Positions 1 to 36,400 of a DNA stretch of 64,000 nt are shown here, piece after piece. Numbering within the stretch: position 1 is the first letter of the stretch; each line of letters starts with the position of its first letter. Position numbers and translations under genes: made by a program. The notes beneath the pieces were generated by a model, which saw nothing but the letters and a program-made list of their open reading frames with translations, was not told the origin of the DNA and did not search any database. The DNA is from Hydractinia symbiolongicarpus (Eukaryota), in the NCBI RefSeq assembly GCF_029227915.1, contig NC_079879.1, positions 12,196,720 through 12,260,719 of the forward strand, in the 5' to 3' direction.

Positions 1-43
1 TAACGAGGTTGGGTCAAGAAAATCTTGAAAGCAAGGCTACCAT

Positions 44-11100: not shown

Positions 11101-11132
11101 GTACCCTTGATTTTTTTGTACTTTTATTAAGG

Positions 11133-14548: not shown

Positions 14549-14959
14549 CTTTTGGAGGTGGAGGTGGTGGTGGTGGAGGTAATACTGTCTCAGGAAGTGG
14601 TGGTGATGGAAGTAATCCAGCTCCAGGAGGTGGTGGTGGTGGAGGTAATCCAGCTCTAGGAGGTAGTGGTGGTGGAGGTAATCCAGCTCCAGGAGGAGGA
14701 GGTGATGGTGGTGGAGGCAATCCAGCTCCAGGAGGTGGTGGTGGTGGAGGTAATCCAGCTCCAGGAGGTGGTGGTGGTGGAGGTAATCCAGCTCTAGGAG
14801 GTAGTGGTGGTGGAGGTAATCCAGCTCCAGGAGGTGGTGGTAGAGGAGGTAACCTAGCTCTAGGAGGTGGTGGTGGTGGAGTTAAATTAGCTCTAGGAGG
14901 TGGTGGTGAAGGGAATCTAGCTGCATAAAGTGTAAGTTCAGGTAGAAGATCACCATCAC
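14549..14959 (-). CDS. Polyproline (FH1-like) repeat exon P6: ...[43 protein letters not shown]...[11 protein letters not shown]
   Basis: Acceptor is cctaaag|GTGATGG and donor is CCAAAAG|gtagtagg. Length is 411 nt, phase 1 to 1. It contains seven or more GAGLPPPP(P/L)PP repeats, which are profilin-binding-like motifs. Confidence 0.65.
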
Positions 14960-16130
14960 CTTTAGGTAAAATAAAACGATTTTAAATGAAATAGTATCAA
15001 AAAAGATTTTTTTACTTCAAAAACGTATTTAAACCACACTTGACAAATAAGTACTAAGAATCACACTGGTTATACACTGTTTACACTGTATACAAGCCTC
15101 CATAATAATTACTGAATATACTTTTAAGATGCTGGGCTTTAAACATAACACTGTGTACGAGGTTGTTAAAGCTTCAGATATATTAAAATCTCCTTGATGA
15201 TCTTTAAGATTCCAGGGCGGACTTTATAAATTATAAACAAATTTATATAGATTTTATATACAACCTCTACTTTATAGCGTTTTAGAGGTTTTTGAAAAGT
15301 ATATAAAAAAAACCCGAGGTTTTTTAATTTGCCCTTAGGGTGCATTGAAAAAAAGCCTAGTGGTTTGTGGAAAAACCCTTTTAAAACAGAATTGTTTTAA
15401 ACATCTCATCATCTAAACATCATACAATTAAAATGTGGTAAATATTAAAACGTGATATACCTATTACGGGAGAAAGAACGCAATACACTTGCCTTTTAGG
15501 AGTCTTTTTAGTAATAATTCTGTCCTAATTCAATTACTTCATGCTAACAGGGAAACAAGAATGCACAAAACACTGGAAAATCTATGAATTTTTCACAGGC
15601 TGACAAACAGTATACAAATACTTTTGAAAGTTGCAGGTTTTACCTTCTTTCAGTTGTGACATACATAATTGTTTGAAACTGGTTTTAACTCCATGTTTTA
15701 AGAGATTTTAGACTAAAATGTAATTTTACAGCAGTGGCATTTGCTACAAATAATGCTTTTTTTTGCTGGTGGCTACCAGATACCTTTTTTCCTCTTGTTG
15801 TTATTAGCAACTCTGGCAGTAATGGTCTTAAATTTTCCAAAAAAGGATTTTTTTAATGGGGTCTTGTGTAAAACCTTTCTAGCCCCATATTTCAATACTA
15901 GGTATATGTCCTCCTTCTCAGAATCAAATTACATTAGGCTATCCTTAGGGTTTTCAGAACCCATTGGTCCTAAGAAAATATGAATTAGCGATAAGTATAT
16001 CCAAAATTTCCTTAAATTTGATATCACACCTCCTGTTTTGATAGTTAAATAAGTGTATATGTTAAAACGTTCTACACAAGTATTTTACATGTTTTGTAAC
16101 TTTACATTTTACAAATTAATATCCAATTAC

Positions 16131-16268
16131 CTTCTAGAAGTGGGGGTGGTGGAGGTAATCCAGTTCCAGGAGGTGCTGGTGGAGGTAATCTAGCTGCAGG
16201 AGGTGGTGGTGGAGCCATTTTAGCTGCTAAAAGTTGTGGTGCAGGGAGACCATATTCTGCAGCTGTGC
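16131..16268 (-). CDS. Polyproline repeat exon P5 (GTAAEYGLPAPQLLAAKMAPPPPPAARLPPPAPPGTGLPPPPPLLEG)
   Basis: Acceptor is ttttataaag|GCACAGC and donor is CTAGAAG|gtaattgg. Length is 138 nt, phase 1 to 1. Confidence 0.6.
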
Positions 16269-18217
16269 CTTTATAAAATAACTAAATTTACATTAACATG
16301 CCAGGTTTAGCATCTAAACTTTCAAATATCAAAATTCTAGCATTTTAATAATTCCATAACAACAAACTTAGCAACAACAACAAAAAATTACTTCTATAAC
16401 TGGACCCCATATGAATACAAAATAGATAGTTAAATTATACAGTTTTGTTCGTCTCAGTAAAAAAAAAAAAAATCAAACTTCCAACTTCCTGATTCTTAAA
16501 TTCAACTGAAACATGACCTGAAGAATACACATCTTTTATATTGAAAAATCCTATTCTTTGGATTTAAAGTTTTGTAATTTGTGAAAATACAAATAAATAC
16601 GACTAAAATAAGGAGTATGCAAAGGTCACATGATACAGTTCAACATGTGCAAATGTTGCAGATACAACAATGTGTTTAAGTTTATACTAGCAGAAGCATT
16701 CATTAAAATGCAACACAACTAACCGATCATAGGTTCAGGCATGTCGAAACACAGTGAATGCTTTGTAGAACTTGACATATACCGTGACTTGAACATTTTT
16801 AGGGATCTCCAAATCCGTGCTACATTAAATTAAAAATAAAGTTCACAGGGTCAGTCAAATAAAAAAAATAACGTAGAGAAATGAAAAGTTATTTATCTTA
16901 AAAGATTGGCAGTGAATCTAAAAAGGAAACAAAATGCCAGATATACATATCAAACCATATGACCTTGCTTTAAATCGACGAAATATATACAGCGTGACTC
17001 ATATTCAGCTGAATTCTGCTTGTTCTGAATAACCCAACAGTTAACCCAACAGTTATATATACTGAATAACCCAAAAGTTATATTAAGTACATTTTGAAAG
17101 TAAATGAAACAGTTTTCGAATTATTAAAGACAGGTAGATTCAGGAAATTAAACAAGTTCATAAGCTTAGCTAAAAAAGAGCTTAAAAAATACGTAGAATT
17201 TTAATATATATAGTCTTAATAAAAAGGATACATCAAGCAGGGACATGTTTGGATTTCTACGATTTGATCATAGGTGCTTCGTTTTTCTAATGTGTTTTGA
17301 TTACTGCATTTGTGAAACCCTGAGTACAAGGTTGTTAAAACTTTCTAAGTAGATTAAAATCTCCTTAAGGATTCGCGAAATTCAGGGTGGTAAATTTTTT
17401 GTACAAGCTCTGCCTTTAAGGGCATATGTTAGAAGAATACTGTTGGGTTATTCAGAACTTGCAGAATTCAGCTGAATATCAGTCACGCTGTTGTTCAAGC
17501 ATTTGTGAGAGAAAAAAATACTGAATTTAGGGATAGGAGAATTTGCATAGATGGAGTACCCAACCAACAGTGGGAAAAATTATCTTATATAATATATGAT
17601 ATGGAATTTGTTTCACATATTTGTAATGTAGTGCACAGCTTAATTGTAAAGAAGATGGAAAAGAGTAAAGAAGCTGACAGTGTATCATTGTCTGAGAATG
17701 GTTAGAAGATTTTATAGTACTTTTGTCTGAAAAAATTGTTCTCTTACAGGTAAATGATTCACTGTAATAGAATTTTAAGATAATAAGATTTTAAATTGGA
17801 AGCATAATTGGCAAAATCTTGACCTATTTGAAAAATTTAGTGATAGCAATAATATCAGATGATTAAAAAAGTAATTAAATCCAATATTTTAGGTTGGTTT
17901 ATAGTTGCGTCCTAAAAAAAAGCCTAGTGTTTTGTGGCACTGGGAGATGTTTAAAAGGTTAAAAAAAAAAGCAAAACTTAAAATATACAATTTAAAATTG
18001 GTAAATATTTTAAGTAGTTACTAATAGTTTTAAGTAAATCAAACTTCAAAATCAAAACACATTAGACCATCCGTAACCTTTTCCAGAACCCATTTTGTTG
18101 TAAGAGATGTAGCAACAAGTGTAACCAAAATTCACTCCTCTTCATTTTTACAGTAAAAAAAAGGGTTAACATTTTTCACACAAGTATCACATTTTTTGTA
18201 TTTTAATATCGAACTAC

Positions 18218-18322
18218 CTTTTATATGTGAGGGTGGTGGAGGCAATCCAGTTCCAGGAGGTGGTGGTGGTGGAGGCAATCTAGCTTCTTGAAATTGTGGT
18301 GCAGGTAGACCATCACGTTCAG
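18218..18322 (-). CDS. Polyproline repeat exon P4 ([36 protein letters not shown])
   Basis: Acceptor is tattttag|CTGAACG and donor is ATAAAAG|gtagttcg. Length is 105 nt, phase 1 to 1. It is a paralog of P5. Confidence 0.6.
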
Positions 18323-18601
18323 CTAAAATAAAACGATTAACAATGAAAAGGTAAATAGGTCGAAAATTAAACAGGTTAATCCAAATTATTCATGGTGTTA
18401 ATTGGAGTAGGCCTTAAAACCATATATAAACTAGGGACAGTTCTGGATTTTGTTACTAGGTCTTCTTCTATGATTTGATGATGGTATTTGTTATATTCAT
18501 CTTATTAACACATGTCTATGGTTTTGTTAATTAATTCTCATTGCAACTATGGTTTTGTTGAATAAATTCCATTGCAAATCGAGTAAGGATGTATCACTTG
18601 C

Positions 18602-18667
18602 CTTCTTCAGGTGGTGGTGGAGAAAATCGGGCATCTAGAAGCGGTGATGATAAACGGTTTATTGCAC
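18602..18667 (-). CDS. Polyproline-gene exon P3 (GAINRLSSPLLDARFSPPPPEEG), which has a GC-AG intron
   Basis: Acceptor is gttttag|GTGCAAT and donor is GAAGAAG|gcaagt. A stop codon follows immediately if the exon is read through, so the GC donor is needed to keep the frame. Phase 1 to 1. Confidence 0.5.
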
Positions 18668-20261
18668 CTAAAACAAAACGGTTTAAAATAAAATATAATA
18701 TTATACAAATTCTTAAGTCACACTTTACAAGTAAATACTATTAAAGTTGTGACATTTTGATGACATATGGTATGACCCATTTATATAAAAAACATTTTCA
18801 AAACGTTTTGGTATCTATTGATTGTATTGTGTAGAGTATGAAACACTGATCAAAATGATTACATAATCATGTCCTTTCGAAACATGATTAGAGATATGCA
18901 AGCTTTTGATGACATCATTAGAACATTGGTTTAATTATTTTAATTCAAGCAAGAATTAATAGAAAACAAAGAAGCGTTTATCCGTGACTTTTTTATCAGG
19001 AATTTGATGCTGGTCAATTACTTTTTATTTAAGTTCAGTGGATAAAAGTGTACATCAAAAGACTTCTTATGCTGTGCATTTTAACACTCAACAACAACAA
19101 AACAACTACACAAAACTACTTTTATAACTGAATCCAAAAGAGATAAAAAATAAATAGTTAAATTATACAACTTTGTCTGTTTCATTGACTAAAACCATTT
19201 TGTGCATTGCAAACTTGAACATTTCATTTTTTTTAAATTTAAATCAAACATGAAATTAAATGAGTACAATAGTATACTTATTTGTCACAGAGTAATGGTT
19301 CAATGTGTGCATGTGATGCAAATTTATAGCACAGACGTTGGTAAACACAACTAACTGTATATTGGTTTACATTCATATTCAACTTCATTATATGGTGACT
19401 GTTGTAGAGAACTTGATATAGAACCCAACTTTGTATTAGTTTGTTTAAAGGAACATAACGATTCCTGTTTTAGTGCTAACTTATTAGGACAGTGTAGACA
19501 CTTTACGAAAATTTGTCTGTTCGTAAACGTTTTCCTTGAGAATATTGTAAAGAATAAAGCTGTTTTGGACATTATCCTTACTATTACTAAAGTCCAACAG
19601 CCGACAGAAAACCACAAAAGCTTATCTCCACTGAAAATACTTTTATAGGATTGTATTTATTTATTTATTTTTTTAACGAACTGTTCTGATTTATGTGTGC
19701 ATGATAAAATAGGTTTAAAAAGAGGAGGTACATTCAAGCAATGTTTATTTAAATTTTATCAAAGTTATATTGTTTATGTGCTCATTTAAAGCCCATCTAT
19801 TGTGCTGCTTTTGTTGTATTTTTGCATGTCTAGAGTTAGACAAGTGTTTTAACGAGAAAACAGGAAAAACGTTTTAATATTTTCCAAACCTAAACTTTTA
19901 AAAAATATTACTGCAGTAGGGGGTACATATAAATAGATAATTCTTTCTCCAAAGTTAATGAATTTTCAGCACAAAATCAGTGTTTGGTGGCTATTGTTTC
20001 TTTCATAGAACAAAAGAGAATATTATAATTATTTATTCCTATCTTTAATTACGGGTTATTTGTTAAGTAATTTCCTTTTATTTCCTTACATTGCTTTTTC
20101 GTCTATATTTTACCATAATTCCAAAAAGTACACCTTACATTAAGCTAATGTTCCTTATTTTCTACATATTCCACCAGAAACAATCAACTTCAAAACAAAA
20201 GAGTTTTTACCGCTAGAAAAATAATTTATAATGAGAAGAATAAGAAACTGCGGAGACGCAC

Positions 20262-20429
20262 CTCCTACTCTTTTTAAACTTAGGTTGGATGTAGCTAAAG
20301 TTTTTTGAGGTAGGGGTTGTAGAGGTAATCTAACTTGTAGAGGTAGTGGTGAATGCTGATCGTCTTTAGGTGGTGGTAAAGGTAATGGAGCTTTAAGACC
20401 CAGTGGTGAAGGTAGACGATTTCTTGTAG
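20262..20429 (-). CDS. Polyproline-gene exon P2 (ATRNRLPSPLGLKAPLPLPPPKDDQHSPLPLQVRLPLQPLPQKTLATSNLSLKRVGG)
   Basis: Acceptor is tattttag|CTACAAG and donor is GTAGGAG|gtgcgtc. Length is 168 nt, phase 1 to 1. Confidence 0.55.
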
Positions 20430-21239
20430 CTAAAATAAAACGATTTAAAATAAAATTGTATTATCCAATTTTTTAAAAAACATTCCATTTTTATAAAAAG
20501 AACGTCACGCTTTACAAGTATATGCTAATAAAGTTGTGACATTTTTATAGCATTAGGTACCACTCATTTATATTAAAACATTATAAAAACTTCTTGTTTA
20601 TCTTTTGATTATATTGTGTAGAGATTGGAACACTGATCGAGATGATGCACAGGACTAATTTTGTTTCCATGTGGTCTCTAGTTACTGATGGAGAATATGA
20701 TCTCACCTATTTTTAACCGTTCCTAAATTATATGACCCTAAGTTAAAGGGTAATTTAATGACCTCACAAATGATTTTGACACCCATCCATTTTAATTTGT
20801 TGACATTAAAATAATACATCAGATCAAACAGGTTTTCTGCAACTATTCCTACCCTGCTGCTTCCGTTTGTAATAACGAAGGCAATATTAAGTATTCTGAT
20901 AAAGCTATCAACTTCTAGCTTTAAAAGTGGGTGTGTTGACCAAGTTTTCAAAATCGCACTAATTTTTGGTTCAAGGTCCTAGCTAGGCAATCATGAAGAA
21001 TTGTTTGTTTGTCGTGGGGAATTTCATGAAATTCTGTCTGCCTCTAAAATTATTGGCTTGAAAATATTATACAAGATTTAGCCTTGTAGCTGTCCAATGT
21101 CTTTAAATAAAGATATTGGCCCATGAGCACTTCTCCAAAACCTAACAAATGAAGGGATATGAAATATAACCGAATAATGTAAAATCCTAAATCTACTGTA
21201 AACATTGGCCAACTGTAATTTGACAAGTGTGTGTAGTAC

Positions 21240-22165
21240 TTACATAGAAACATCATTCATCATCATTTTCAGCTTAACATATGTTCTTCATGCTCATATG
21301 GGTTGGACAGGTACATCAATGACATTCTGATCTAGACTGTATGAGCTATCTAGACTGTTTAAACCCAAATTTACCTACATCAAGTCTATCCTTTTTAACT
21401 CCTGGCAAATCTTTTTCATTCTACTTATGAGCTTATCCCAGGAAATGTCTTTAGATTATTCAGTTATCGTACTTTTCCAAGTGCCTCAACCTTCTTCCCT
21501 CGATAACCTCTCTAACACTACGAATACTTGCTCCTTATCTCATCTGAACTCTCTGTCTTCCAGACTGGTGTTACATAGCCATGTAATTATTCTTATAATA
21601 CCACGTTATAAACAGCCAAGATCTTCCTTCTTCATTGCCCATGTCTTACTATCACACATCATAAATAACCTACCTGTCACCTCAACGGACACGACTCTTA
21701 TGGTTAACAAAAAAAGTAACTCTCTGAACTTGGTCTAAGCAGAACCTATTCTGCAAGTAACACTTTTATTAAAACCCTTTCACTAACCAACATATTACCT
21801 AAGTAACAGAAATTCTTAATCATCTCCAACAAGTCACTGTTGCACATCCTCACAGCTGAAAATTCTCTTTTGTCTCTAATCTCACCCTTGCAACGGTTAC
21901 ATACAAACTGAATGTGAGCAACCCCTTTTCTCCAAACTCCACAAGAGCACTTTCCAATCACAAGTTCAAACTTAGCTTCAATGCTTCCAATCATGTCTTT
22001 AGACTTTTCTGCGTTCACTTTCAAGCCTTTCTCTTCTAGTTTGCTTCCACTGCTTAAAATTTTCCACAAATTCTTCCATAGTCTTAACTTTGCATCTAAA
22101 AACTTCAATGAAAACCCCCTCATAAACTTCATTGACAGCGCTTTTAAGACAACACAAAACAACAA
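21240..22165 (-). mobile_element. Non-LTR retrotransposon (LINE) 3' fragment: RT C-terminal end plus Cys-rich tail (..GLKVNAEKSK..CSCG..C..C..NFCYLGNMLV..) and 3' region
   Basis: The minus-strand ORF 21746-22165 carries the LINE RT terminal 'GLKVNxxKTK' motif followed by a 'FCYLGxML' block. The downstream ~350 bp (21240-21600) recurs at 28140-28500 and 63880-63960. Confidence 0.45.
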
Positions 22166-24008
22166 TGGACTAAGTACAGATGTACGCCAACATTTATGCT
22201 AAAATCATCACTAAGTGAATTGTAAGTTCTGACACGAATTCTAATTTTACTGTACATAGACTGTACCATAATTTTCTCTATGTGACCCAGGAAATTTTTC
22301 GAAATCTACAAAGACATGCTTTCTCTTTCCTTAATACTTATACTTAAGTTTTCTTAGTAAGTATAATACAGCTGTAGTTTTGCGCCCTGGAAAAAATTCA
22401 AATTTCATCCTATCTATATCAATTCTTTTACTTAGTAACCTCTCAATCAGTCTTTTAATATATTTTATTACTTTATAACCAACTTCAACCCTCTGTAGTT
22501 ACCAATGTTTTCGGCATTACCCTGCCCTTGAAATAACTTACTATTACACTTGACTGCTAGTCACTCAGAATAACACTATCCCTATCTCATTGGCAAAACT
22601 TGTAATAAACTCAACTCCAGTATATCAAAACACTTTTACAATCTTCGCAACAATACCTGCAGCCTTGCCAATTTTTATTTTCCCAATTGCCCCACCTACC
22701 TGTTCTGTTATGTCCTGGCCTGCATAGTCATGCAATTATGCTCATTTCACTTAAATTCTTTGTCAAGTGAACTTTGTACGAACCAAGAGAATATCATCAT
22801 TACTTATACACTTGTCACCTACAACATTAATCTACATTTGCTTGCTATGTTAAAACGTCTTTACCAAGCGCTTTTGGTTAGAAACTTCAAGTTCTATCCT
22901 GCGTTTTATCACTATTAAGGTTATGGGTTGTAGGTATTTATACAAAATAATTTTTATTAATCTTAATAATCAATTCAGTTTTTTTCATTATAAAGTTTAT
23001 TCATTATTCGTTTTGTGAGCACCCTAGTTTTCAATTGAGGAAAAAAAACTTTCTCTAAGTTTAATTGCACCCTACTAAATTGATTTTTTTGTTTATTCAG
23101 GTATTTAAATATGCTGGCTTGCATTTTAGTAAAACTTTTCACGCTTTTTTTAATTGATAGGCAACTGCAAATATGAGTTAAACTTTCACATTTGAGGGTG
23201 TATTCTCTATCTTTGTGCAACAAATCCAGAAAAACTAATGATCCAATTCTGAAAAAGTTGGTTATGAATGCATAGATGGATTGAGTAAGGTCAATTTATA
23301 GGCCCTCACTTGTGCCAAGTAGATCTAAAAATGCATTTTTTTGTCTCTCAGTAAATTTGATGTTATTTATCAATACAGTGCCATAGCGAAAACGTTGCAT
23401 TCATAAAGGTAGATTAGAAAAAAAGCTAGTTAACTGATCACTTTACAACCAAGAGACTGCTGGTGAAATTTGTCAGCATTCTTTTATAATATCTATCTTT
23501 TGACTCCTAGCTAATTGACTGTGATAAACTTCTTGAAATATTAATACAATGAAAAAGAACATAGACGTTTCGGATTAAAAGGTGGCTGAAATTTTGAATT
23601 AATATTGTAAAGTAGTTCACATTACATAAAAAAAAAGTAAATTTTACCAAGGCCTAGACAATGCTTAGTGATAGTTTTACTAAGAATTTGTAACTGCATA
23701 AGATATGATGCTGCTTATTATTTTTAGGAGGATTAGTAAATTTAATTTTTATATACTTACGTTCACGCAGTCAGGTTTTGCATTGCCAAAACTTAAATAG
23801 TAGAAGATATTTAATTCTCCAAAATTATATACTCAATATTCCTACATCTTTTTTGCATTGTATCTCAAAGATCATCCTGATTTTTGATTAAGTTGACTCA
23901 CAGGTCATTATATGAGTATTTAACGGTCATAGCACCATTGTTTATAAATTACTTCATAATTGTCTAATTAGAAAACAGAAGTAAACAGTGAACTAAGGAA
24001 TGCGTTAC

Positions 24009-24203
24009 CTGATAATGCTGCAGCAGGACGAGATTTTAGAGGTTGTGGTAGAGACTTTTTAGCTTTCGCAAACCGTGATCGAAGCAGGCCCTCTCCTCCA
24101 AGTGGTGTTGGATGACAACCATATTTTGTAGTAAGTGGTGGAGGTAATCCAGGTGGTGGTGGTGAATATGTAAGATCTTTCTCAGGTGGTAGTTTGGTAT
24201 TGG
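24009..24203 (-). CDS. Polyproline-gene exon P1 (ANTKLPPEKDLTYSPPPPGLPPPLTTKYGCHPTPLGGEGLLRSRFAKAKKSLPQPLKSRPAAALS)
   Basis: Acceptor is attttag|CCAATACC and donor is TTATCAG|gtaacgca. Length is 195 nt, phase 1 to 1. It joins in frame with P2 through P6. Confidence 0.55.
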
Positions 24204-26289
24204 CTAAAATAAAAATTTTTAAACTTCTGATCCATTTGAAACTGCCTTCCAAGTCACACTTTCTAAATAACTGATAGCATAGATGTGATTCATTACAGAG
24301 GGATAGATGTCTAAAAGGATATTTGTAACAAGCAACAAAATTACCAAATCATTGAGAGATGACTTTAACAAAATTACCAAATCATTGAGGGATTACTTTA
24401 ACAATATTACCACTTATCAGTTCAGTTACAGTCATTGTTTCGAATGTGATTGAAATCATTTTTGGCTATTTATTGGTCGAGGAGATAATTAGAGGATCGA
24501 AGTGCAAAAATGATATTTTTAGAAGTTGATAGGAAATAGTATTGATAAAGGTTTCTCTATTTATAGTATGTATAGTTTCTTTCACTCTTCCTGCTATCCC
24601 ACAGAACTTCTGTGATATTTTTATTGTCGAAGTCAATAATATGATAATTCTGTAGTTGTCAAAACGTAGCCTAGTATAAATTTTCTTTTTTATTATAATA
24701 ACTATATTATTCGAAGATATGTGGTAATATTTGTAAAGTTATTAAACAGCAATATGGTTGATGTGAGATTGTTAATAAAAACTAGATTAAAAATTGTAAG
24801 ATATTCCACATTACAAAGTCAAACCGGGGAGAAGTCAGAAAATACTACTTGGTGCAAGTCCCCAATTGTTGCATAAGCAGATTCATCTTATATTCATGTG
24901 ATGAGAAATAATATATTGATTAAGATGACTGGAATTGACCAGAATAAAAATACAATACTGTCAGGTATATTATAATAATTTATTAAACACAACATTCTTA
25001 TGTATGTTGTCATGGCAACAATGGGGCGCCACTTTTAGACCTTAAAAATCTTGAAAATGATAAAAAATATAAAAAATTACACAGCTTATATTGAATTTGT
25101 AATGAAAAATTGAAGCTGAAATTTGTTTACGTACATATCTTCTATACCATAATTTGGTACAAAATAAGGTAAACTGCTAAAAATAATTGTGCAGAACTCT
25201 AAAGCAGGGTTTACTGGATTTAAATAAAAGTTGATGCTAATATCAGCCGCAAAAATCTAAAAAATCTTAAGACAAAGCCACATTTTTGTCAAACTACCTA
25301 AATTACAAATTATGCGACGTTGTCCTTGATATTCTTTAGTGCTGAAACTTGTGAGAACTACATCTGAACTCTGCACAGTTGGAAGCTAGGGAATCATGAC
25401 TGGGAACTGAGAACAATGCAAGGAAATAACATCAGTAGTGCAAGTAAAAGAAGAGGAAGTTTTTACTAATTTTTCAATTGGATTTTGAGGCACCCTACAA
25501 TAAAAATTAAATATGATGTCTGATGCTGGGGAATGGTCTCATCTAGATAATATTTATTTTGAGATTTTAAGCCATCTAGTAACATGCCAGCACTGCAGAG
25601 GCACGTTTGTTTTTAGTGGCTATATACATTTTGCTATCTACAAGTAGCTATATACATTTTTTATGTAGCTAGCTAGCTAGCTACCTACCAGGGTTTACAA
25701 AGAAATTCTGTCATTTTAAATAAGGAATTTTGATATTTTCTGTTACTACCTTTCTATGACAGTAAACAGTCAAGACTTAAGTTTAAGCTATATAAGGTAA
25801 ACTGTGTCATACGTATGGTGAGTATGTGTCACATATGCAGTGGAGCGTTTACAGCATAACATCTTTTTGAAAACTAACATTCGCAGCAGTTATGATGAAA
25901 CCTATTTTTACTTTGGAAAAGCAAATACAGTTGTTTAGCATTTTATTTGCAGAATACGTTTTTGTGGATGTATAAAAAATAATTGTGAGTGGAACTAGGT
26001 TAAGCTATTAGTACAGATAAACTAAGATGCAGATTCGGGTGGATACAAAAAAAAACTCTCTGAAAACTGTGAAGATTTGGCACTGTGCTGTCCAAATTCC
26101 TATTTTCTCTGTGCTACCTAAACTTAGGGCATTTAATGTTTTCTGCACAGGTCTAAAATTACTGACGACAGAAAATGTCAAAATTTTATTCTTCATTTAT
26201 GACATCATAATTTATGCAGCATTAAAATGTGAATATCTTGGAAACGAAAATAGCTTAATCTTATGTTAACGTTATGTTTGTCCTACTTA

Positions 26290-26408
26290 CCTTTGCCAAT
26301 TTCTTTTCTCATTATTGAGAATGGACTTGACATTGTGAGTATACCCCTTTTTGATTTAGCCTCGTCACCTACATAAGAATCCTTCTGGCCCATTCCAACC
26401 ATCACACC
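26290..26408 (-). CDS. Actin-derived exon A3 ([39 protein letters not shown], matching actin residues ~42-80)
   Basis: Acceptor is ttcttag|GGTGTGATGG and donor is GGCAAAG|gtaagtagg. The '[17 protein letters not shown]' DNase-I-loop block is identical to actin. The distal part diverges but aligns residue for residue, with the W of ..VTNWDD retained. The exon ends in phase 2. Confidence 0.6.
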
Positions 26409-26499
26409 CTAAGAAATCAAGAAGCAAAACATAGGAATAGAAAAAAAAACTTAGCAAAAACTCAACGAAGTAATTGATGTAATGTTGTGTCATAGTCAC

Positions 26500-26568
26500 C
26501 TGATGTCTAGGTCTTCCAACTAATGTTGGCATAACAACGCGTGGTTTTTTCTCCCCAGAAAAACCAGC
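26500..26568 (-). CDS. Actin-derived exon A2 (AGFSGEKKPRVVMPTLVGRPRHQ, matching actin '[23 protein letters not shown]')
   Basis: Acceptor is ttttatag|GCTGG and donor is CATCAG|gtgacta. The exon ends exactly at the conserved actin codon 41/42 intron position. Confidence 0.65.
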
Positions 26569-27559
26569 CTATAAAATACCAGATATGCTTTAATATAATG
26601 CTTTATATCTTAGACTTTATTAACATAAATAAATACAACTTTATTCATTACTTCACTAAACAGCATTTTTAAATTGATAAAGAATTAAATTGTTTGAAAA
26701 TCATTTTCGAAAATGTTTAACTGGTAAAAAGACATTTTGAAAAACACCAACCTGCCTTCAAAAAAATGACCTTTTTTACAAAACTACTTTAAAATGACTA
26801 CTTTTACTAAATTACCACTGTTCCAAACTCTTTCATGAAACAGATTTAAAATGTAATACCAAACTCGAGTGTGATTTTAAATTTTATGACTGACGTAGCT
26901 GTGCACTAAACGGCAATTATAGCAGTAGGCATTTATGTACTATAACAACATCTCTGGGAGATTTACTCATAATTTTGATTGTATCTTTGTATTAATCTGA
27001 CAAGCTTAAAAGTTGATTTAAAAAGCAAGAATCTGAAAAGTTGATCCAAGAGTCGAAAATCTGATCTGAGAAGCTGAAAGGCTGATCTGTAAAATTAATA
27101 GTTTTAATTGTTGATTGGCCACAAAGGTACTGCCATCATATCATAGAAATGAAAGATAGCCACAGCCTTAGATAGAGCCTTGTGGCATTATTTTTTTTAG
27201 ATATTGCTTTAAAAAGGTTTGGCGACTGACAAAAAAAGAAAATATTAGGATTTCTCCATCATCTGCATTTTTTAATTGAATTCAGAAGATTTTGAGGCAC
27301 CCTACATTAAAAACTAAATATGATGTCTGATGCTGGGGGATGGTCTTAAAATATTTTTTTTGCATACTTTGCTCTTCTTTAACATTTATTTACATGTGAC
27401 ATGCTTCTACATTATACAGAATTGTCATTAGGCCACAGAAACAAAAAATACAACACATTCTGAACAATTTTTGGTCATGTATTATAAAACAAACCTTCCT
27501 GAAAGCAATATCAACTGTTTTAAAATTTGAATTCTTATTTAAAAACAAAAGGTACCTCA

Positions 27560-27586
27560 CCTTCATTTCATGCATACCAGTATCCA
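27560..27586 (-). CDS. Actin-derived exon A1 (MDTGMHEMK, matching actin 'DNGSGMCK'), possibly extending to 27604 (VKGAVI...)
   Basis: An in-frame ATG sits at the complement of 27584-27586. The donor is GAAATGAAG|gtgagg. A possible upstream acceptor is tttcctag|GTTAAAGG at 27604. Confidence 0.45.
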
Positions 27587-28139
27587 TTATTACAGCTCCT
27601 TTAACCTAGGAAACATAACTGATTTTGAATTTGATACGAAAAATATAATGATATAATGATTCTTGAAAGAAACTTTTACTTCCTAATGAAATTAAAATAT
27701 TTAATTCTTTTCAACTGACTTTATAGCCATTTGATTTTGTCAGGCCAGGAAATTATGGTGGGGAAGGATGTTCATTTAACCGAATTTAACCGAGGGTTCA
27801 CTAGGGTACGGTTCATTGAAACCATTTCGTTGTTAGGATAACAATGGGGTAACAATGTACAAACAGGGTAACAATTACTGAAAATACAGTAGAAAATTTC
27901 TGTAGAAAATGACTGACACAAGTAAATCCTAAAAAAATATTCATAAAATGGTTAAATTTTATTGATTTTTTTTTTTTTTTTGCTTTAGCCTTATATTATA
28001 GCATAATTATTTTTATTTATTTTTATTAAGTCCAGTGTTAATCCGTTGCTATTTTTGTTCTTTAGAGTGACAAATATAATTAGCTTGTGCTTCATTCTAT
28101 TAGGTAAGTGACAAAGAGAGATCATACTGGTAAGCGTTC

Positions 28140-28500
28140 TATTTATTTACATCATAATCATCATCATCATTCTCGGCTTAACGTCCGTTTTCCATGCTAG
28201 CATGGGTTGGATGGGGTATATTAAAGACCCTCTTCCAATCTGATCTAGACTGTGTTAGATCTAAACTCAACTTCCTCTGTATAAGTCTGTCCTTATAACC
28301 TCCTTCCAAGTCTTTCTCGGTCTGCCTCTGGGCTTTGCCCCAGGAACTATCACGTCTCTACACTTTTTTACCCAATTATCCCCCTCCATTCTTTCAAAGT
28401 GCCCCAGCCAATTCAATCTTCTTATCTGGATAACATCTTTAATTCTATGGATACTTAGCCTGCTTCTTAGCTCATCTGAACTCTTTCTGTCTCTCTTACA
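28140..28500 (-). mobile_element. 5'-truncated LINE 3' end, same family as 21240-21600, lying in the PARP4-like 3' flank or intron
   Basis: Collinear match 'catcatcatcattctcggcttaacgtccgttttccatgctagcatgggttgga...' vs 21240 'catcattcatcatcattttcagcttaacatatgttcttcatgctcatatgggttgga...'. An (ATG)n-like tail sits at the minus-strand 3' end. Confidence 0.45.
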
Positions 28501-28566
28501 AATAGAGAAAAATTATTTCAATTTTTTACACAAAATAAAATTTTAATCTGACCTCCACCTTATCCA

Positions 28567-28790
28567 TTAGATTATTTTTTTCTTCTACCAAAAATGATGC
28601 ATCCAGATCTTCACAATTATCATCTACCAAAAATGATGCATCCCTATCTTCAGAATTATCATCCCAGTCAACAGAACCATAAGAGACACTATCAGAGTCA
28701 GAGTCACTAACTGGGACAGAGCCACAAAATTGATAATAATTTCCTTCTTTTTCTTCTTCTTCTTCAACCTATTAAAAAATTTAGATAAAA
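28567..28790 (-). CDS. Unassigned acidic candidate exon (VEEEEEKEGNYYQFCGSVPVSDSDSDSVSYGSVDWDDNSEDRDASFLVDDNCEDLDASFLVEEKNNLMDK) with an internal ~36-nt tandem repeat
   Basis: An open frame is flanked by an ag|GTTGAAG acceptor and a GATAAG|gtggag donor, both phase 0. I cannot tell whether it belongs to the PARP4-like 3' end, the actin-like gene, or the polyproline gene. Confidence 0.25.
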
Positions 28791-29771
28791 CTAAAAATGC
28801 ATGCCTCAAATGCTGATCGAAAAATTAAACGTGACAATGTCAACAACATTAATTTAAGGTAGGAGTAACCCTTTTTAGCTGTTCAACAATCTGTTGTTAT
28901 CTATACAAATTTCCTTTGTTATTTCCCGAAAATTTAGTCCTTTGGGCACAGAAACAATTTTGTTTAATTTTTTAATTTGCTGCATCAGCAAATATAGTCA
29001 GTTATAGACATACAACATAAAAAGAAAAGAAATAGCTTTTACGACTTCCAAAGTTTTACGGAAAACTTTTATATTTTAAAAATTTTTTACAATAGCCTTT
29101 TGTTTGTTTTGAAAGAAATCTCATCAGCATACTGCATCTAGGTGCTGTCAAAAGACAATATTTAAAATCAAAAAAAATTTCCACACACCTTTTTAAAGCT
29201 GTATGATTTAAAAAGCTTGTGTTAAAATTTTAAAGAGAAACGAAAATGCTATCAGCGTTTTCAGAGTTTATTGTTACTTAATGCACCATCTTTGCTGTTA
29301 ATAATGTTTCTCTTTATTAATTAATTCATTCATAATTTCTCAAGTGTGTAGCTCTAAAGCTATATTTGACAGAATTAATTAGTTATTTACAGCCGAGAAT
29401 GATGAATGATGATGATGATGACAGAATTGTTGAAGCTAAATATTTTTTATGAAAGATAAGTATTACAGCTATAAACTTATGAAAAGTGTGTGATAACAGA
29501 AAAAATATGGATATATAGTCTGAAAATAACCTTTTGTAACTAATTACGTGAAAAAATATTTCTGATTTTTAAAAGGGTTACCGCCACCTTAATGTTAATA
29601 CCTTAATTCAAATTAACAATTACAATGTACTTTTAGCTTTGAGACCAAATAACTTGAAAATTAGTGGAAAAAACATACGTCATCTACTGCATGGTTAACT
29701 AGAGACAACCTGAGACTACAACTAGGCCAATTTTCTAAACCTTGGTACTCCAGTCTGTTTAAAAAAGGACA

Positions 29772-30016
29772 GGTTGATGACGTCATCAGAAGATGTTCAA
29801 ACTCCAATACCTTTGTAACCGTTCGTCAAAAGTACACAATCCTACACATTTTTTAGCAGCGTTTCAAACTCTACACATAGGAGCAACGGTTCTAAATATG
29901 CTAAGGCATATTTTGCTCCCACATGTGCATTATTTTGTACTTAAGAGCTGCTCTGGAGTTCAGGGACAAAGTAAAATTTACTTTATTTTTCACCAATGAT
30001 GTTTAGTGACATCATA
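29772..30016. mobile_element. MITE-like element (homolog of 11133-11300) with termini containing the CRE-like palindrome TGATGACGTCATCA
   Basis: Left end is 'gttgatgacgtcatcag' and right end is 'tagtgacatcat'. Internal similarity to the 11.1-kb copy. Confidence 0.4.
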
Positions 30017-30232
30017 TCTATAGCATGTTGAAGGATTTTTGTGTTTAATTTGATTGTTTAACTTAATTTCAACTAATTTGTATGATATTTTTCACTGTGT
30101 GATAACTACTACATATAATAAGTCCATAAATTTTGATAACATATTTGATAGACAATTTTCTTTGTTTGCCTCGTTCTATACACTTGTACAAGCATCAAGT
30201 TTGTATAGGTGAAAATATAACAGTATTTTTAA

Positions 30233-30409
30233 TTAACTCACAATTTCTGACTCGACTTCGAATGCCATGTAGGATAAGATATCTATGTTTTCCATCGCAA
30301 CAAGTTCATCTATTGTTGGTGCTGTGTCATCTTTACTTTCAACCCTCTGAATAAAAAAACTACCTTCTTCATCTTGTTCGAAAATGAATCTACTAGAATA
30401 CTCTAAATG
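30233..30409 (-). CDS. PARP4: PARP4-like terminal coding exon (HLEYSSRFIFEQDEEGSFFIQRVESKDDTAPTIDELVAMENIDILSYMAFEVESEIVS*)
   Basis: A NAGNAG-type acceptor ttagag|CAT is required to stay in frame. The continuous ORF ends at TAA, the complement of 30233-30235. An alternative GAAATT|gtgagt donor at 30242 could extend the CDS. Confidence 0.5.
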   Translation of the reverse strand, partial: HLEYSSRFIFEQDEEGSFFIQRVESKDDTAPTIDELVAMENIDILSYMAFEVESEIVS

Positions 30410-33400
30410 CTCTAATAAACATTTCAGGTGTTTATTTAATTTCCAAGATTTTTAGGGTTGTTTATTGAAGGTTAGTATTAAATAGACACTGGGTGTTTAT
30501 TAAAAAAAATAAGAAATTTGAATATTTATTTTTGGACGTTTATTAAAAATAGGAAATCCAAATATTCATTTTAAATATCTTAGGCATTCTCATCACAACT
30601 TCAAATTAATAATTCCTTGAGGGAAACTCTAATAAACTAAGAGGAAGGGCACGTTTAGGGACAGGTGTTGATTAGAGCATTATTATTATAAGAATTGTTA
30701 CATCTAATAACGTATACCTCTCTTTCTTCGATGGCTACAAAGCTTGTAAATTTAGTTACAATTGAGAATTCAATACTCATATCAATAATTTGCTTTTTCA
30801 TTTGCTGTTTTATCATCTAAATATATTTAAGGGAAATATAATTGTGATAAAATTTGAATGCTTGGATAAATGTTTTTAATATTTTTGAAAATAAGAAAGC
30901 AAAAAAAAGACTCCATTTTTTGTTTTTAATTTGTATATTTCTAATAATTTTATTTTTGCTGAATTTTAAGAAAGCTTTTTTTCCTTTTTTAAATATAAAA
31001 TTATATTTAAAATGATAATACTTGTTCACTATAAAACCAAAATTGGGATTTTATCATCGAAAAAAGAAAAAGGAAAGAAAATGCAGGATTTTAGGGGGAA
31101 AAAATATAACACACCTCATGTTGTATTTGGTCCTCATTCAACATTCCATTTTCCCAATCTTCAATAACTGCCTTGGCAGCAAGACGATGTATAGACTAAA
31201 ACAATAGTTTATTTATGTTTTTGTATTCAGCATGCATATTTTACTAGAATTGCTCCAATTTTAGTAATAAATTAAAGTAAACATTTTACCAAGCCAGTTA
31301 ATGTGCTTAGTTCAGATGTAGAGACAAGCGTGGACATTTGCTTTCCATTTACAGAAGCTGTTAATGTTGCCTAAACAATGTAAATTTAGAATAACAGTCA
31401 AACCTTATTTTTTTTTTAAGTTTTAAATAGTAGTTGACAAACAACATACCATAGTGCAATGTGGGACAAAGCCATACACTACCAATCGCGAGCCATTAAA
31501 CAATGCTGTAATTTTATTCGGTGCCTAAAAAAGATTAATCCGTACCAGAACCTTTGTTAACGCAACAGAACCTCTTTTTCGAAGATTAACATCTATTTGA
31601 AAATTGTTCAAGGTGGTCTTTACAGATTATAAAACAGTTTCTCACACCTGTAAAGGTTTTGGAGCATCATAATCATTTTGTACCCAATGAACTTTAACAT
31701 CTGTCAGAACAGGTTGTTGAGACTTCTCGATTTGCATTTTCACCTACAAAATGTAATACATAAGCATTATAAAACTCGTGGACATGGTTTGAATTTATAT
31801 GGTTATTAAATGGAGCTGATGAAAATTCCATTTTAAACATTTATTAATTTACATACTTTTTTCTCCCATTTCGATTTAAAACTATTATCAAAATATTCAA
31901 ACCAACCACTTCCAAGGTCTGCAATTCTTCTTAACACATGTTTATTAACTGTTGAACTAAAAGAGTAATGTTAATGAGAACAATGATTTTATTTATTAGT
32001 AGTATCCAGAACAGAAAGAAAACCAATATTGCACTGACCTTAGTCCAAACGTAAACATCCGGATGTTCTTGTTGTTGCTTTTTATTGATGCTAGTGTTGT
32101 TTCTTCATCTGATATATGTCCATCAGAAAACAAAAACACATTCTTAGGTGACAGTTCTGATCCTAAATGCTGCAGTATAGATAATGGTTTCCAAAGGTGT
32201 GTTCCTCCAAGCGATGGTTTCAAAACCTTAACAAGAAAACCATCTATTTTAACACTCTTCCCAAATATAATGTACATATTTTTAGGAAGGATGCAAGGAA
32301 AATGCTTAAGTGAAGACAAACTAATAAACAATCACTTTCAAAAAGAAGTTAAATTAGAATCGTAATTTTAAGGACTACATATAAAATCTTAAAACTGCAA
32401 GTGGTGGAGAACCTGCAACCCATAAAATAGTAATTCAAAAAAAAAGATGTTTTAAAACATACATTGCATAAAAAAACTTTTTGAATTTCGTTTTGCAATT
32501 TTTTAACTCCCAGAGAAAATATTGCAACGAAATATCTTACAAAAAACTTTTCTAGCTTTGCGTTGCTTTAAAAATTTGACAACACTGGTAAATAAAAAAA
32601 ATCATTGCATGGGAAATGATTAACTCAATACATTGATCTGTACATGGACAATTCAATAACACAATTATGGTTTGCTTTGTACACTGTTCTTTAGTCGTAG
32701 TTTTGAATAATAGTTTAACATAAAAAGTGCTCACCTTTAAGAAAGATAATACAGACTTGTGAGTTTTTTGGGTTTTTGATTTAGGAGCTAAAAACAACTC
32801 TTGCTGTTCTAAAAGTAATACAAAATGTCTGTAACCCTGTTTTACTTACTGTATGGATAGACAAAACTATGAATAAATTAAAACAACATACTTTCACCAA
32901 ACTTGACGATATTAAAAATGGTTCCTTCTGGTAGATTAGTATAAGTTAGATAAACAAGTTTTTGCAGTTCTTTCTCAAGACCCTTAAAATAATAGGACAT
33001 GTTTATTCAATTTTAGACAAACATAAAAATTCTAATAAATTAACCTAAATCAGTATAATTTTGATCGCCTTTTTTTAATTTAAGAAAAGTGTCATGCAAA
33101 TGATAAAAAACAATAGCTTAAAAAATGAGCAGAATAAAAAATCAAGCAAGGAACTTCTAAACTTTACCTTCATTGAGTTAGACAAATCAATCAAAAACAC
33201 AACATCCAACACATCTGTTGACTCACTTTCGAATTCAGGGAAAAATGTCAACATGCAGGCCTTAAAATATAACAGAAATGAAAATAAATACAAAAGCATA
33301 ATTTTAAGACAAATAGAGCCTCATTTTGATCTTGCCTGTGTAGATGCCAGAATATGAAGTTTTTATTTTATTTAGTCACCAATGCGCACTTCTCTTCTAT

Positions 33401-36400
33401 TCAGTCAAACAGACGTGTGACTCAAAGCCTTTGACAATAAAGTTTTACTTTAACCTTTTATATTTTAAATATTTTAAATAAATTGTAATTATTTTTAATG
33501 AATAAATATATTTATATATAAAAAAATAGAGCCCCATAAAATTATTAAAGTACCTTTTATTAGATATTAAAAACATACTTGTTTGTTTGAATCAGTAGGA
33601 TGACGTTGAGCAATCATTCGAGGGACATGAATTTCAGCAAGATCGATTAACAATTGAAATGAGTCACCAAGTGCTTTATCCATAAGATGAACAACAGATT
33701 TTGTAGCAGTTTTCTAAAAAAGTAAATAATGTTCTACTTAAAAAATAAAGTAAATGAAGAAGCCACATATTTTTTACCAAAATATTACTTACCTTAATTT
33801 TTACTGAATGTGTGGGCGAGAAAATTTTTCTGATCTCATACGGCATATCCACGGATAACTGCAGTGAGAATTCTCTAAATCACATTTTGAAGTGCAAACA
33901 TGTAGTGAGTAAATAAAGTTGACAATGCTTGTTAATAAAATGTGTATACAAATATACATCACTGACACACCTTTTTTAACTTGCATTGTTGTTTAAGAAA
34001 GGGAATGGTGTAAAGCAGTTCTTAATACAGTACTTAATTAAAAGGAGTGCTCATTAAAACTACTTTCTATTGTAGACATTAGAAAAGGACACGTACTTAA
34101 GGGCATTCTAGCTGAAGAATGGGGTGATATAGGGGGGTTTATTTGATAAATTCACAATAATAAAAAATTAATGTGTGATACCCCAGTGCTTTATCGTCAT
34201 CAACATTAACTGTAGCAACATCATCCTAAAAAAATAGGTATAAATAGGATTGTTGGTCTCTTTTGAGGTACAAATAAAACCCAATACATATGTCACCAAA
34301 ATCTTACTTGAATTTGAGTAGCCAAAGCAGTTTTCTTGGTCCATGGTGCAACACATCTAGGCAGCACGAAACTAATTTGTTCTCCTTCTAACTGAAGTTC
34401 TGCTACGTATGTAATTTTTATTAAGACGTCAGCATGCGGTGGGAGATTCCCAACACTTACAGTGAAAACATCCTGCAGAGACCAATCATAAAATAATGTT
34501 TTTTCTTTTAAAAATATAGTACGAGATTCTGATCTTAGATTCATTTTGACTAAATAGGTAACTTAATACCGTATTGTTACATAATACAACAAAAAATGGT
34601 AAAAATCCTGATAAATATCTTACAGCCTGTTCTTCTTGTTCTTCCATAAGATAAGCACCATGACCTTTGCTGATGGCTTCCTTGTATTCTTTTCGTGCTT
34701 GTTCTTTTTCTTTTACGTGACCGATTATGTGTTTACCATTAATAAACGCTTCAAAACCACACACTACAGGATAAAACAATAAGTTAAAACATCCATTAAT
34801 TAATACGCAAATAAAAACACTGTTTTAATTATTATTTTTTAAAATTGGAAAATTTTTTAAAACAATTTTTTTAATTACACATACCTGCTGCCATACTGTC
34901 TAAAGGAAACACATATTTCGCTTCGATAGCTACGGTACTTTCATTGGTGTAAGCTTGAAGAACCACAACCTTCAAGAATGATATTGGTTTCATAATATGT
35001 TAACAAAAAATAAATGTTAATGCAGCAAAGTCTGAAGTCATAATTAGTAGCATTGAAGCTAAGTGTAACCTTGTAATGTATAAGTGGCCTTGTGAAGTGT
35101 GCAGGAAAGGGGTTGGTAGTAACTCAATTTTTTGTCAGACTTGTAAGCATTGGGTACATAGAAGTGCAGTAGTAGAGAAAGGTTAGCAGTTGACATTCAG
35201 TTTATATGCAAACATTGCAAAGGTGAGATTATAGAAAAAGTCGTATTTTCAGCTTTAATAGTGTACAACGGTGGCTCATTGTTATGCTTCTGTTATTTAG
35301 ATGGTATGTTCCCTAAGTAGATAGGTAGTGAAGGGGGTGTTATAAGAAGTGTTATTTGCTGGACAGATTTTGCTTTGAAATAATGTGATTTTGTTACAAC
35401 AAAAATTTCCTTTGTAGATAATATTTCATACCTCAGAAGCTAAGTCTTGTAACTTTGCTCTAACATGAACTGCAGTCAGAGGTATTTTTGAATCACCTGT
35501 ACTTTGCAAACCAGCAGCAACTTTGTTTAAAGGATTCTCAACATTTTGAACATCATCCAAATTGAAATCTATTATATAATCTATATTATAATACCCGTAT
35601 ACGTCTGTCTGTCACGCAAAATGGTACCGCAAGCAGTGAGACGCACACAATGCAGTATAAAAAAACGGGCTAACCCTTGGATTTTTCCATGGGCCATAGA
35701 CTAGTATGTAAAGTTTCTGTTGAAACAACATAACAGGTCTGTATTGATTGTTTACAGTTAGATGTTTCACTACCCTTTCTGGATTTCTTCCAATATGACC
35801 TTTACCACCCAACACATCATAAAAACTAAAAAAACTTTGTTGTCTCTAATCTTATCTTTGCAACACACAGCTGTTGGCAACTCTTAACCTTCCGCAATAC
35901 CTAGTGGTAGTGTTATCAATGAGAATCTTGCAAAGGGGGGTCTAGAGCATTTAAAGCTTCCATTTGAGCTACAGAAGGTGTGTAAGTACAACAACCACTC
36001 TGCTATACCACTGCCCAAGATATCAATCTTATTCTCATGTTTATGTTTACGAGAACAGTGATTCACACTTTTATAATCTGTAGCATGACTCAGTCGAAAT
36101 TGAACTCACACCCTTTTGCACTGGAGGAGGCAATCAGTCGGCAAAGAGTCAGACGAAAAATTGAGTTGTTACCAATCACTTTCCTGCAAACTCCATATGG
36201 CTGCAGTCCAACTATAAGATCAAACTTTGCTTCAATGCTGCTAATCATGGCTTTAGAGACTCTGCTACATTCACTCTTAACCTTTTTCTTTTAAGCATTT
36301 CTTCTACTTCTCAAGCTTTTTAACTAATTCTGCCATTGATTCTGCTACGGAAACTAAATCATCTGCCTGCAATAAACTCAATGGATACTCTGTTCTGAAC

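Follow-up and report, generated by a model that had tools for sequence, protein, structure and literature searches.

A probable ancient actin-derived module among the exons of the Hydractinia symbiolongicarpus PARP4 gene

We have analyzed a stretch of 64,000 nucleotides (nt) from Hydractinia symbiolongicarpus (NCBI RefSeq assembly GCF_029227915.1, contig NC_079879.1, positions 12,196,720 to 12,260,719; hereafter the window). It is AT-rich, intron-rich animal DNA with a GC content of about 32%. Its minus strand carries three short exons, A1 to A3, which encode a fragment of actin. The explanation that fits the evidence best is that this fragment is an ancient actin-derived module, that its exons are genuine exons of the window's PARP4 gene, and that it occupies an internal linker of the PARP4 protein; we hold this explanation as a whole with high confidence. 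The confidence is equally high for one part of it, namely that A1 to A3 are genuine coding exons of the gene for PARP4, the vault poly/mono-ADP-ribosyltransferase (vPARP, of PARP clade 5). As far as can be judged from sequence, they are probably included in the PARP4 transcript constitutively. Within the module, the copy of actin's D-loop, the loop that binds DNase I, is the part on which selection appears to act.

The actin-derived exons and their host gene

The three exons lie on the minus strand, and a slash marks the junction in the splice-site sequences given here. A1 (27605..27561, 45 nt, phase 0-0; tatgtttcctag/GTT...AAG/gtgagg) encodes VKGAVIMDTGMHEMK, which corresponds to actin residues ~4-18. 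It is followed by an intron at actin codon 18/19 (26569..27560, 992 nt, GT..AG, with the splice sites read in the window). A2 (26568..26500, 69 nt, phase 0-0; ttttatag/GCT...CAG/gtgact) encodes AGFSGEKKPRVVMPTLVGRPRHQ, actin residues 19-41. The second intron, at actin codon 41/42 (26409..26499, 91 nt, phase 0; CAG/gtgact...cttag/GGT), occupies a classical actin intron position. A3 (26408..26291, 118 nt, phase 0 to 1; tttcttag/GGT...AAAG/gtaagt) encodes 39 residues plus one base. The first 25 residues of A3 correspond to actin 42-66, and a 14-residue non-actin tail then leads to the consensus donor AAG/GTAAGT. The D-loop block, 17 residues equivalent to actin 35-51, is encoded at 26379..26520 on the minus strand, where the 41/42 intron splits it into 26520-26500 and 26408-26379. 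All 77 codons of the module are open and six of its six splice sites are canonical. The three exons of the original prediction are real, though its coordinates miss each end by one base. No record was returned when the read-through open reading frames (ORFs) of A1 and A2 were looked up as exact sequences, and a scan of metagenomes for DNA encoding FSGEKKPRVVMP gave 0 matches.

The host gene, a PARP4 orthologue at 4652..47707 on the minus strand, was recognized by its colinearity with Hydra vulgaris PARP4 (XP_065649889.1) and by the Pfam domains of the reconstructed protein. The Hydra protein gives 27 ordered high-scoring segment pairs with the window, covering its residues 1-1916 from 47707 to 4652 and including A2, A3 and the C-terminal exon. 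This is the best colinear match, with a per-exon identity of 45-78%; the PARP4 proteins of Nematostella, Mytilus and Magallana give 17-21 ordered segment pairs. The domain order read by Pfam from the reconstructed protein is BRCT-PARP-VIT-VWA-Actin; its PARP4 architecture, with VIT followed by VWA, agrees with published descriptions (PMC2169495, PMC2964712). On the minus strand, the BRCT exons are found at 47707-46776 (BRCT_2, 43.3 bits against a cut-off of 27.3; BRCT, 31.1 bits), the PARP regulatory and catalytic exons at ~44.6-41.7 kb (PARP, 33.8 bits against a cut-off of 26.7; PARP_reg, 21.8 bits and under its cut-off), VIT at ~35.0-34.3 kb (119.5 bits) and VWA at ~33.3-31.9 kb (VWA_3, 39.9 bits). 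Compared with Hydra PARP4, the catalytic exons have 52-79% identity. The Actin model also passes its threshold on this protein, with 51 bits against a gathering threshold of 27.

Four further host exons after VWA (31370-31290, 31195-31115, 30813-30718 and 30349-30239, minus strand) were located by tblastn with the Hydra, Nematostella and Mytilus proteins. They are the last conserved host exons upstream of the module, and the first three of them are phase 0-0. Directly upstream of A1 is a putative acidic exon (28768..28559, minus strand, 210 nt, phase 0-0; aatag/GTT ... AAG/gtggag) that would encode VEEEEEKEG...SVDWDDNSEDRDASFLVDDNCEDLDASFLVEEKNNLMDK. An acidic stretch precedes the module in every homologue, for example ...SDWGSDEFYEDNIDDE... 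in Nematostella. At the far end of the gene, the C-terminal exon (4966-4652, minus strand) matches the C-terminus of Hydra PARP4 (residues 1825-1916, tblastn E=1.8e-11) and no Pfam model. In human PARP4 this position is taken by the MVP-interacting domain (PMC10450202, PMC2169495).

Between the module and the C-terminal exon lies an array of proline-rich exons (14549..24203, minus strand), all of which are phase 1-1 with lengths divisible by 3. These are P1 (24203-~24120, with a tentative end), P2 (20429-20262), P2b (18667-18602, with a GC donor), P3 (18322-18218), P4 (16268-16131) and P5 (14959-14549), the last of which holds a 33-nt repeat encoding 11 residues. The P exons align with the polyproline repeat units of Hydra PARP4, residues ~1510-1680. 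A single reading frame runs from the host exons (phase 0) through the acidic exon (0-0), A1 (0-0), A2 (0-0) and A3 (0-1) into the P exons (1-1). The original prediction had A3 ending in phase 2 and not joining P1. This was a counting error, as A3, with its 118 nt, ends in phase 1 and joins the phase 1-1 P exons in frame.

This in-frame join, together with an in-frame ATG in A1 in the reasonable context ataATGG, could also mean that A1 to A3, together with the polyproline exons, are a short gene of their own that begins at this ATG and lies nested in PARP4 or downstream of it. We regard such a gene as highly improbable. The homology with the Hydra module continues upstream of the ATG in A1, and the acidic and post-VWA exons upstream are in phase. 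Moreover, in five species the module is internal to a full-length PARP4 that continues to the C-terminal domain, which is also mapped downstream in the window. One of the two options first offered for the fragment, the 5' end of a gene for a mimic of actin subdomain 2 beside polyproline tracts, is therefore right in essence as to the mimic and wrong as to the gene, since these are internal PARP4 exons between the VIT/VWA region and the C-terminal domain.

The array has some features of its own. The 33-nt tandem repeat is present in ~10 copies in P5 at 14560-14908, and also occurs at 16147-16227 and 18232-18301. The P exons lie within a tandemly duplicated unit of ~2 kb, other pieces of which are conserved at 70-85% identity (e.g., 13630-14079 and 15589-16006); some of these may be further small exons such as ...DSEVEDIYLVFQYGER... 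We considered that the actin fragment had been inserted into a polyproline-type exon unit. This is unsupported, as the similarity of the flanks (p~0.005-0.015) is on the acceptor side only and nhmmer profiles of the P-unit flanks miss the edges of A1 and A3.

Three low-coverage metagenome-assembly contigs also carry PARP4 exons, namely L001 (ENA ERZ25072740), L002 (ERZ25072490) and L003 (ERZ21830300). They probably come from related cnidarians in host-associated samples. Their VIT exon is 93-96% identical to that of the window; introns are far longer in L001 and L002, and several exons are fused in L003. The exon at 31370-31290 is also kept in L002, and all three contigs end short of the module position.

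The relation of the module to actin lies well outside what chance would give. Pfam aligns module residues 3-68 with positions 5-65 of the PF00022 profile (E=1.2e-13), and tblastn with canonical actin against the window gives 8.5e-17, in line with the actin derivation first proposed. The same tblastn search found no actin-like exon besides the module in the whole 64 kb, which bears out the earlier remark that further actin exons are missing. By its sequence, the module (actin residues ~8-70) combines subdomain 1's first beta-hairpin with subdomain 2, which includes the D-loop. The D-loop is the contact of DNase I on actin. Detectable homology stops at about residue 66-70; the extent of ~8-80 given originally was too long at its end. 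The last ~40 nt of A3 are no better matched to actin than shuffled DNA is, whether compared as protein, with frameshifts permitted, or as DNA, and reading this tail as a degenerate actin MEKIWH with a deletion was likewise not above chance at either level. An 18-residue tail proposed for A3 arose from a frame slip. The 39-residue reading in one frame is the one kept in Hydra, where the SSPF of the tail recurs (GILTLSSPF).

A1 alone is marginally actin-like (p~0.07 at the protein level; p~0.006-0.014 at the DNA level, against an actin back-translation). Its reality rests on conservation with Hydra PARP4, where IILDTGMAETK stands for the VIMDTGMHEMK of the window. Compensating -1/+1 frameshifts in A1, by which the DNA ..AT AAT GGA T(A)CT GGT ATG would read DNGSGM, are ruled out because the in-frame DTGM.E.K is kept in Hydra PARP4. 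Phosphate-binding loop 1 has diverged, as was recognized from the start. The DNGSG of actin is DTGMH in the window, DTGMA in Hydra and D.GS[LH] in the other homologues. The complete actin fold has ~375 residues in four subdomains, of which the module covers profile positions 5-65 of 410 only, or ~15% of the fold. Because of this, and because the ATP-binding loop is not conserved, the module cannot work as actin. Set beside the Actin family (PF00022; actin/Hsp70/hexokinase ATPase fold), it is essentially identical at residues 35-58 and has the intron between Gln41 and Gly42 (Q41/G42). Unlike actin, it has neither subdomains 3 and 4 nor the remainder of subdomain 1; prediction does not show it folding by itself, and it can neither bind nucleotide nor polymerise.

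Homologous modules and the age of the capture

Exhaustive searching by phmmer, for which a fragment of the host family's VWA region served as the query, gave ~60 full-length PARP4-like proteins, among which the window fragment was then searched by BLAST. Five proteins matched, each after the VWA domain. These are PARP4 of Hydra vulgaris (XP_065649889.1, residues 1256-1324, 72% identity, 5e-33), Nematostella vectensis (XP_032219397.2, residues 1492-1554, 65%, 2e-25), Mytilus edulis (CAG2205451.1, residues 1295-1348, 65%, 4e-20), Magallana gigas (K1PUC2, residues 1265-1321, 61%, 3e-19) and Macrostomum lignano (A0A1I8HY60, residues 950-1015, 52%, 1e-14). Pfam gives a shortened Actin match (profile ~2-65 of 410) after VWA in the first four of these and in the window protein; the Macrostomum module was found by BLAST and by a hidden Markov model of the module. 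In Hydra and Nematostella the module is present in all full-length isoforms. A word-index search with the fragment returned ordinary actins only, at 71% identity or less.

The five proteins and that of the window have BRCT-PARP-VIT-VWA, the acidic stretch, the module, a proline-rich linker and the C-terminal domain in common, with the same module boundaries and the same invariant D-loop block. The window gene differs from them in an extra intron at 18/19 and in its tandemly expanded polyproline exon array. In the Magallana gigas model, residues 1433-1532 form a fragment of the Hsp70 substrate-binding domain (Pfam HSP70, E=3.6e-12, profile 417-517), which may have been captured as a second fragment or may reflect a fused gene model.

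The module of Hydra is 72% identical to the window fragment and 65% identical to actin. The PARP4 modules differ from actin by common derived states, which include Thr at 33, a bulky residue where the phosphate loop of actin has Gly15, and Pro ahead of the L-V-x-D strand. DTGM.E.K and the non-actin tail SSPF are further features common to the window and Hydra. In the Nematostella gene, a phase-0 intron falls exactly at Q41/G42 (CAG/gtaaac ... tgcag/GGC), as it does in the window, and the last module exon runs straight into PTPPLQDRPPPP repeats. Since the Hydra module is closer to that of the window than to actin, and since derived states and the Q41/G42 intron are shared, the evidence speaks for a single capture. 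The parsimonious reading of these sequences is that one capture took place, from an intron-containing actin gene, before the cnidarian-bilaterian split.

Both introns had originally been placed at canonical actin positions. This is correct for the phase-0 intron at Q41/G42. The Nematostella module has no intron at 18/19, so that this one cannot be called ancestral from these data; relative to Nematostella, it is specific to the lineage of the window. Genomic actin ORF fragments were also checked for intron positions, with top matches that are biased to intron-less stretches. That the module is of genomic origin and not a retrocopy is supported by the Q41/G42 intron common to Nematostella, though the duplication is not a recent one, as it predates the cnidarian-bilaterian split.

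The other option first offered, that of a decaying partial actin duplicate or pseudogene, would make the module a non-functional relic lying within a host-gene intron. A decaying copy would explain that no more than ~60-70 actin residues are left and that the 64 kb hold no other actin exons, as well as the destruction of the ATP-binding loop and the strong divergence of the flanks; it would also explain why nothing in a collection of 5.8 billion protein clusters is more than 71% identical to the fragment. However, five distant species have the same module at the same place in their PARP4, and derived residues and an intron are shared. Its frame is open, its six splice sites are intact and its phases match the host exons on both sides. 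Divergence from actin is strongly non-uniform, with an invariant core set against diverging synonymous sites, which speaks for selection at the protein level. A neutral relic could not last for more than 600 million years. We therefore take a decaying duplicate to be refuted in effect, and give it next to no weight.

The module is absent from the PARP4 gene models of a sponge, a crinoid, a sea urchin, amphioxus, a fish, a frog, a lemur, a snail, a nemertean (Tubulanus), unionid mussels, a scallop and the oyster Saccostrea, the model of which is of low quality. Human and other vertebrate PARP4 proteins also lack it. This patchy distribution implies multiple losses or, in some cases, annotation gaps. 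Judged from the sequences, the module has been kept in cnidarians, some bivalves and one flatworm.

Constraint on the D-loop copy and its possible role

Compared with actin, the window module has changed at 8 of 16 positions in residues 19-34 and at 1 of 32 in residues 35-66 (Fisher p=2.5e-4). The 17-residue D-loop block (actin 35-51, the D-loop with its flanking strand) is identical to actin in all six sequences, namely the window and the five PARP4 homologues, and the YVG.EA motif is also invariant among them. The identity of this block to actin, first noted in the window, thus extends to the whole set. The window agrees with Nematostella in the core at 23 of 24 amino acids, yet at only 11 of 24 codons. 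Since amino acids are kept while codons diverge, conservation is at the protein level. When the full-length PARP4 proteins of Hydra, Nematostella, Mytilus and Magallana are aligned, no invariant run is longer than the D-loop block, and no other 17-mer scores as high (17/17). The next best 17-mer, in the ITIH-like region, has 15/17, and the best window of the catalytic domain has 12/17. These patterns suggest that selection acts on the D-loop itself, whereas neither the ATP-binding loop nor the flanks are held fixed.

The exons could be genuine and the D-loop invariant for another reason, recurrent gene conversion from multicopy actin genes, in which case a disordered linker would simply tolerate the module as a passenger. 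Within genomes, the actin paralogues of molluscs appear to evolve in concert (PMC5440852). The exact identity of the invariant block to actin and the many losses of the module point in this direction too. Yet conversion would need the same tract boundaries of ~50-70 nt independently in at least five lineages, and would never have overwritten the adjacent derived residues (T33, two codons upstream, and A52 in three lineages). The block straddles introns that differ in length and sequence (91 nt in the window, ~780 nt in Nematostella), and a functionless passenger would not stay the most conserved segment of the protein. We consider gene conversion very unlikely.

What the conserved D-loop copy does is a matter for more tentative proposals. 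It is possible, and we put it no higher, that the module mimics the surface of actin in a largely unfolded state; of the mechanisms considered, this one has the most support. The copied D-loop would then dock where the real D-loop docks, most plausibly in the barbed-face cleft of actin, or else on a D-loop-binding protein. Such docking would anchor PARP4 or vaults on monomers of actin or on the ends of its filaments. The acidic stretch may echo the acidic N-terminus of actin, and the adjoining polyproline tracts could recruit profilin or SH3/EVH1/WW proteins. A narrower form of this proposal, which we regard as rather doubtful, is that the D-loop copy is a self-mimic ligand that sits in the barbed-face hydrophobic cleft of actin or Arp, as the neighbouring filament subunit would.

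The predicted structure of the module bears on the surface mimic. From a shallow alignment of the six module sequences, AlphaFold2 gives a low-confidence model with a mean predicted local distance difference test (pLDDT) score of 52. In this model the N-terminal hairpin has actin-like strands, and most of the D-loop block scores below 50, with isolated residues at 50 or above. The low scores of the block would fit a motif that becomes ordered on binding, and are weak evidence for one. Human PARP4 has a long disordered linker, positively selected in primates, from its ITIH-like part to the C-terminal MVP-interacting domain (PMC10450202). Vaults have been observed at actin filament tips (PMC2150576).

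A serious functional rival to the surface mimic, although an unlikely one in our estimate, is that the module acts as an integrated decoy or tripwire. Pathogen effectors or host enzymes that recognise or attack the D-loop of actin would also act on PARP4 or vaults through its copy and so trigger ADP-ribosylation or a vault response. The targets envisaged are D-loop-specific proteases and MICAL-type oxidation of M44 and M47, which are the MICAL targets in the D-loop (PMC5736627). A decoy must stay identical to an invariant model, which fits the 17/17 invariance, and the module is predicted to be unfolded and hence accessible. For the same linker that is positively selected in primates, cleavage or modification by viruses has been proposed, and vaults have been linked to innate immunity (PMC10450202). 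The proposal is purely inferential, and a decoy of the D-loop only would leave the conserved N-terminal hairpin and acidic stretch unexplained. We know of no such D-loop effector in cnidarians or molluscs. Repeated loss in animal lineages is equally compatible with a decoy or with an actin-surface mimic.

Several points weigh against the interpretation that we prefer, from the splicing of the exons to the actin-surface mimic. The module is patchily distributed, being found in 5 of 149 clusters of PARP4-like representatives; as most representatives are without it, it is dispensable for core PARP4 function. The vault-actin observations are mammalian, and mammalian PARP4 has no such module. The splicing of A1 to A3 is predicted from conservation, phases and splice sites. 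The P exons are of low complexity, hence their homology to the Hydra repeats is weak. The structural model is of low confidence and comes from six sequences. Finally, gene conversion from actin retains a small probability for the invariant core at the DNA level.

The co-occurrence of PARP4 with an Actin domain is already on record. The precomputed Pfam list of Nematostella PARP4 includes PF00022, and Perina et al. 2014 noted that some PARP4-like proteins have an extra C-terminal domain, 'e.g. actin', and suggested a cytoskeletal link (PMC4245714). We did not find described the anatomy of the ~60-residue N-terminal actin fragment, the retained actin intron, or the D-loop as the most conserved element of PARP4.

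The module can also be compared with other actin-related elements. WH2 and RPEL motifs bind the actin cleft, which lies between subdomains 1 and 3, through an amphipathic helix. By analogy with WH2/beta-thymosin, RPEL, the G-actin-binding site of Ena/VASP and formin FH1, the module would be a short, probably unfolded, actin-directed element beside polyproline of the profilin/SH3 type in a disordered region. Unlike WH2 and RPEL, with which it has no sequence similarity, its putative ligand would be a copy of actin's own D-loop. Primate POTE-actin is a recent, full-length actin retrocopy at a protein C-terminus. In both cases actin coding sequence has become part of an unrelated protein, but the module in the window has ~60 residues and contains introns, was probably captured more than 600 million years ago, and appears to be constrained in the D-loop region only.

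Vaults and PARP4 have, to our knowledge, gone for decades without an agreed function. Neither the catalytic site nor the vault-binding domain is the part of PARP4 best conserved among cnidarians, some bivalves and a flatworm; that part is the 17-residue copy of the D-loop, kept identical to actin from before the time when cnidarians and bilaterians parted. This offers a concrete handle on PARP4, as the partner of the module may be actin, an actin-binding protein or an actin-modifying enzyme. If the self-mimic ligand is real, these proteins would represent a vault PARP with a built-in arm that docks on actin or engages barbed ends, made up of the D-loop copy, the acidic stretch and polyproline. 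Such an arm would belong to a class of actin-binding elements not characterised before, and would physically connect vaults and ADP-ribosylation with the actin cytoskeleton. The module would also be a clean case of ancient exon capture, in which a binding surface was retained and the fold was not. For genome annotation, short "truncated actin" matches inside PARP4 loci are likely to be real exons and not pseudogenes.

Neighbouring genes and repeats in the window

A Pfam scan of minus-strand ORFs downstream gave nothing beyond an unrelated gene with a WSC-like domain, which comes after the PARP4 orthologue on that strand (40-1002, minus strand; Pfam WSC E=6e-4, below the gathering threshold). 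On the plus strand, exons of an adaptor similar to CD2AP/SH3KBP1 (CIN85) lie at 56969-61844. Two SH3 domains share a single open stretch (Pfam SH3_1 E=3e-29), and ~58.9-59.2 kb holds a third, SH3-like exon; of the others, the one at 60.16-60.56 kb is rich in proline and lysine and the one at 61.6-61.8 kb resembles a coiled coil.

Fragments of retrotransposons without long terminal repeats are present in the PARP4 introns at 28140-28520 (minus), 21237-21558, 21749-22198 (minus), 35004-35183 (plus) and 36093-36290 (minus). The fragment at 28140-28520 is the 3' end of a long interspersed nuclear element (LINE; ...RLNWLGHFERM...GRPRKTWKEVI...) and is closed by an (ATG)n tail located ~540 nt upstream of A1; at 21.2-21.6 kb there is a copy with 66% identity. 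A 3' transduction of the 5' end of actin by this LINE was considered and dropped, as no evidence of a tail or target-site duplication was found, and the deep conservation of the module supersedes the idea.

A dispersed family of short repeats occurs on the minus strand at 5811-6185, 35429-35845, 37508-37792 and 39157-39387, within and beyond the PARP4 gene. It gives a spurious translation (...RDRQTE/DVYGYYN...) and is probably an element similar to short interspersed nuclear elements. Just upstream of the PARP4 5' end, open stretches similar to retrotransposon Gag (...YKNPPVLKDGSNYIDWKKELEVWQALTDLTDEKKALAV...) are found at 48414-48955 on the plus strand. A 122-nt tandem repeat, with 2 copies of 83% identity at 39941-40186, lies in a PARP4 intron, within the window's most GC-rich part.

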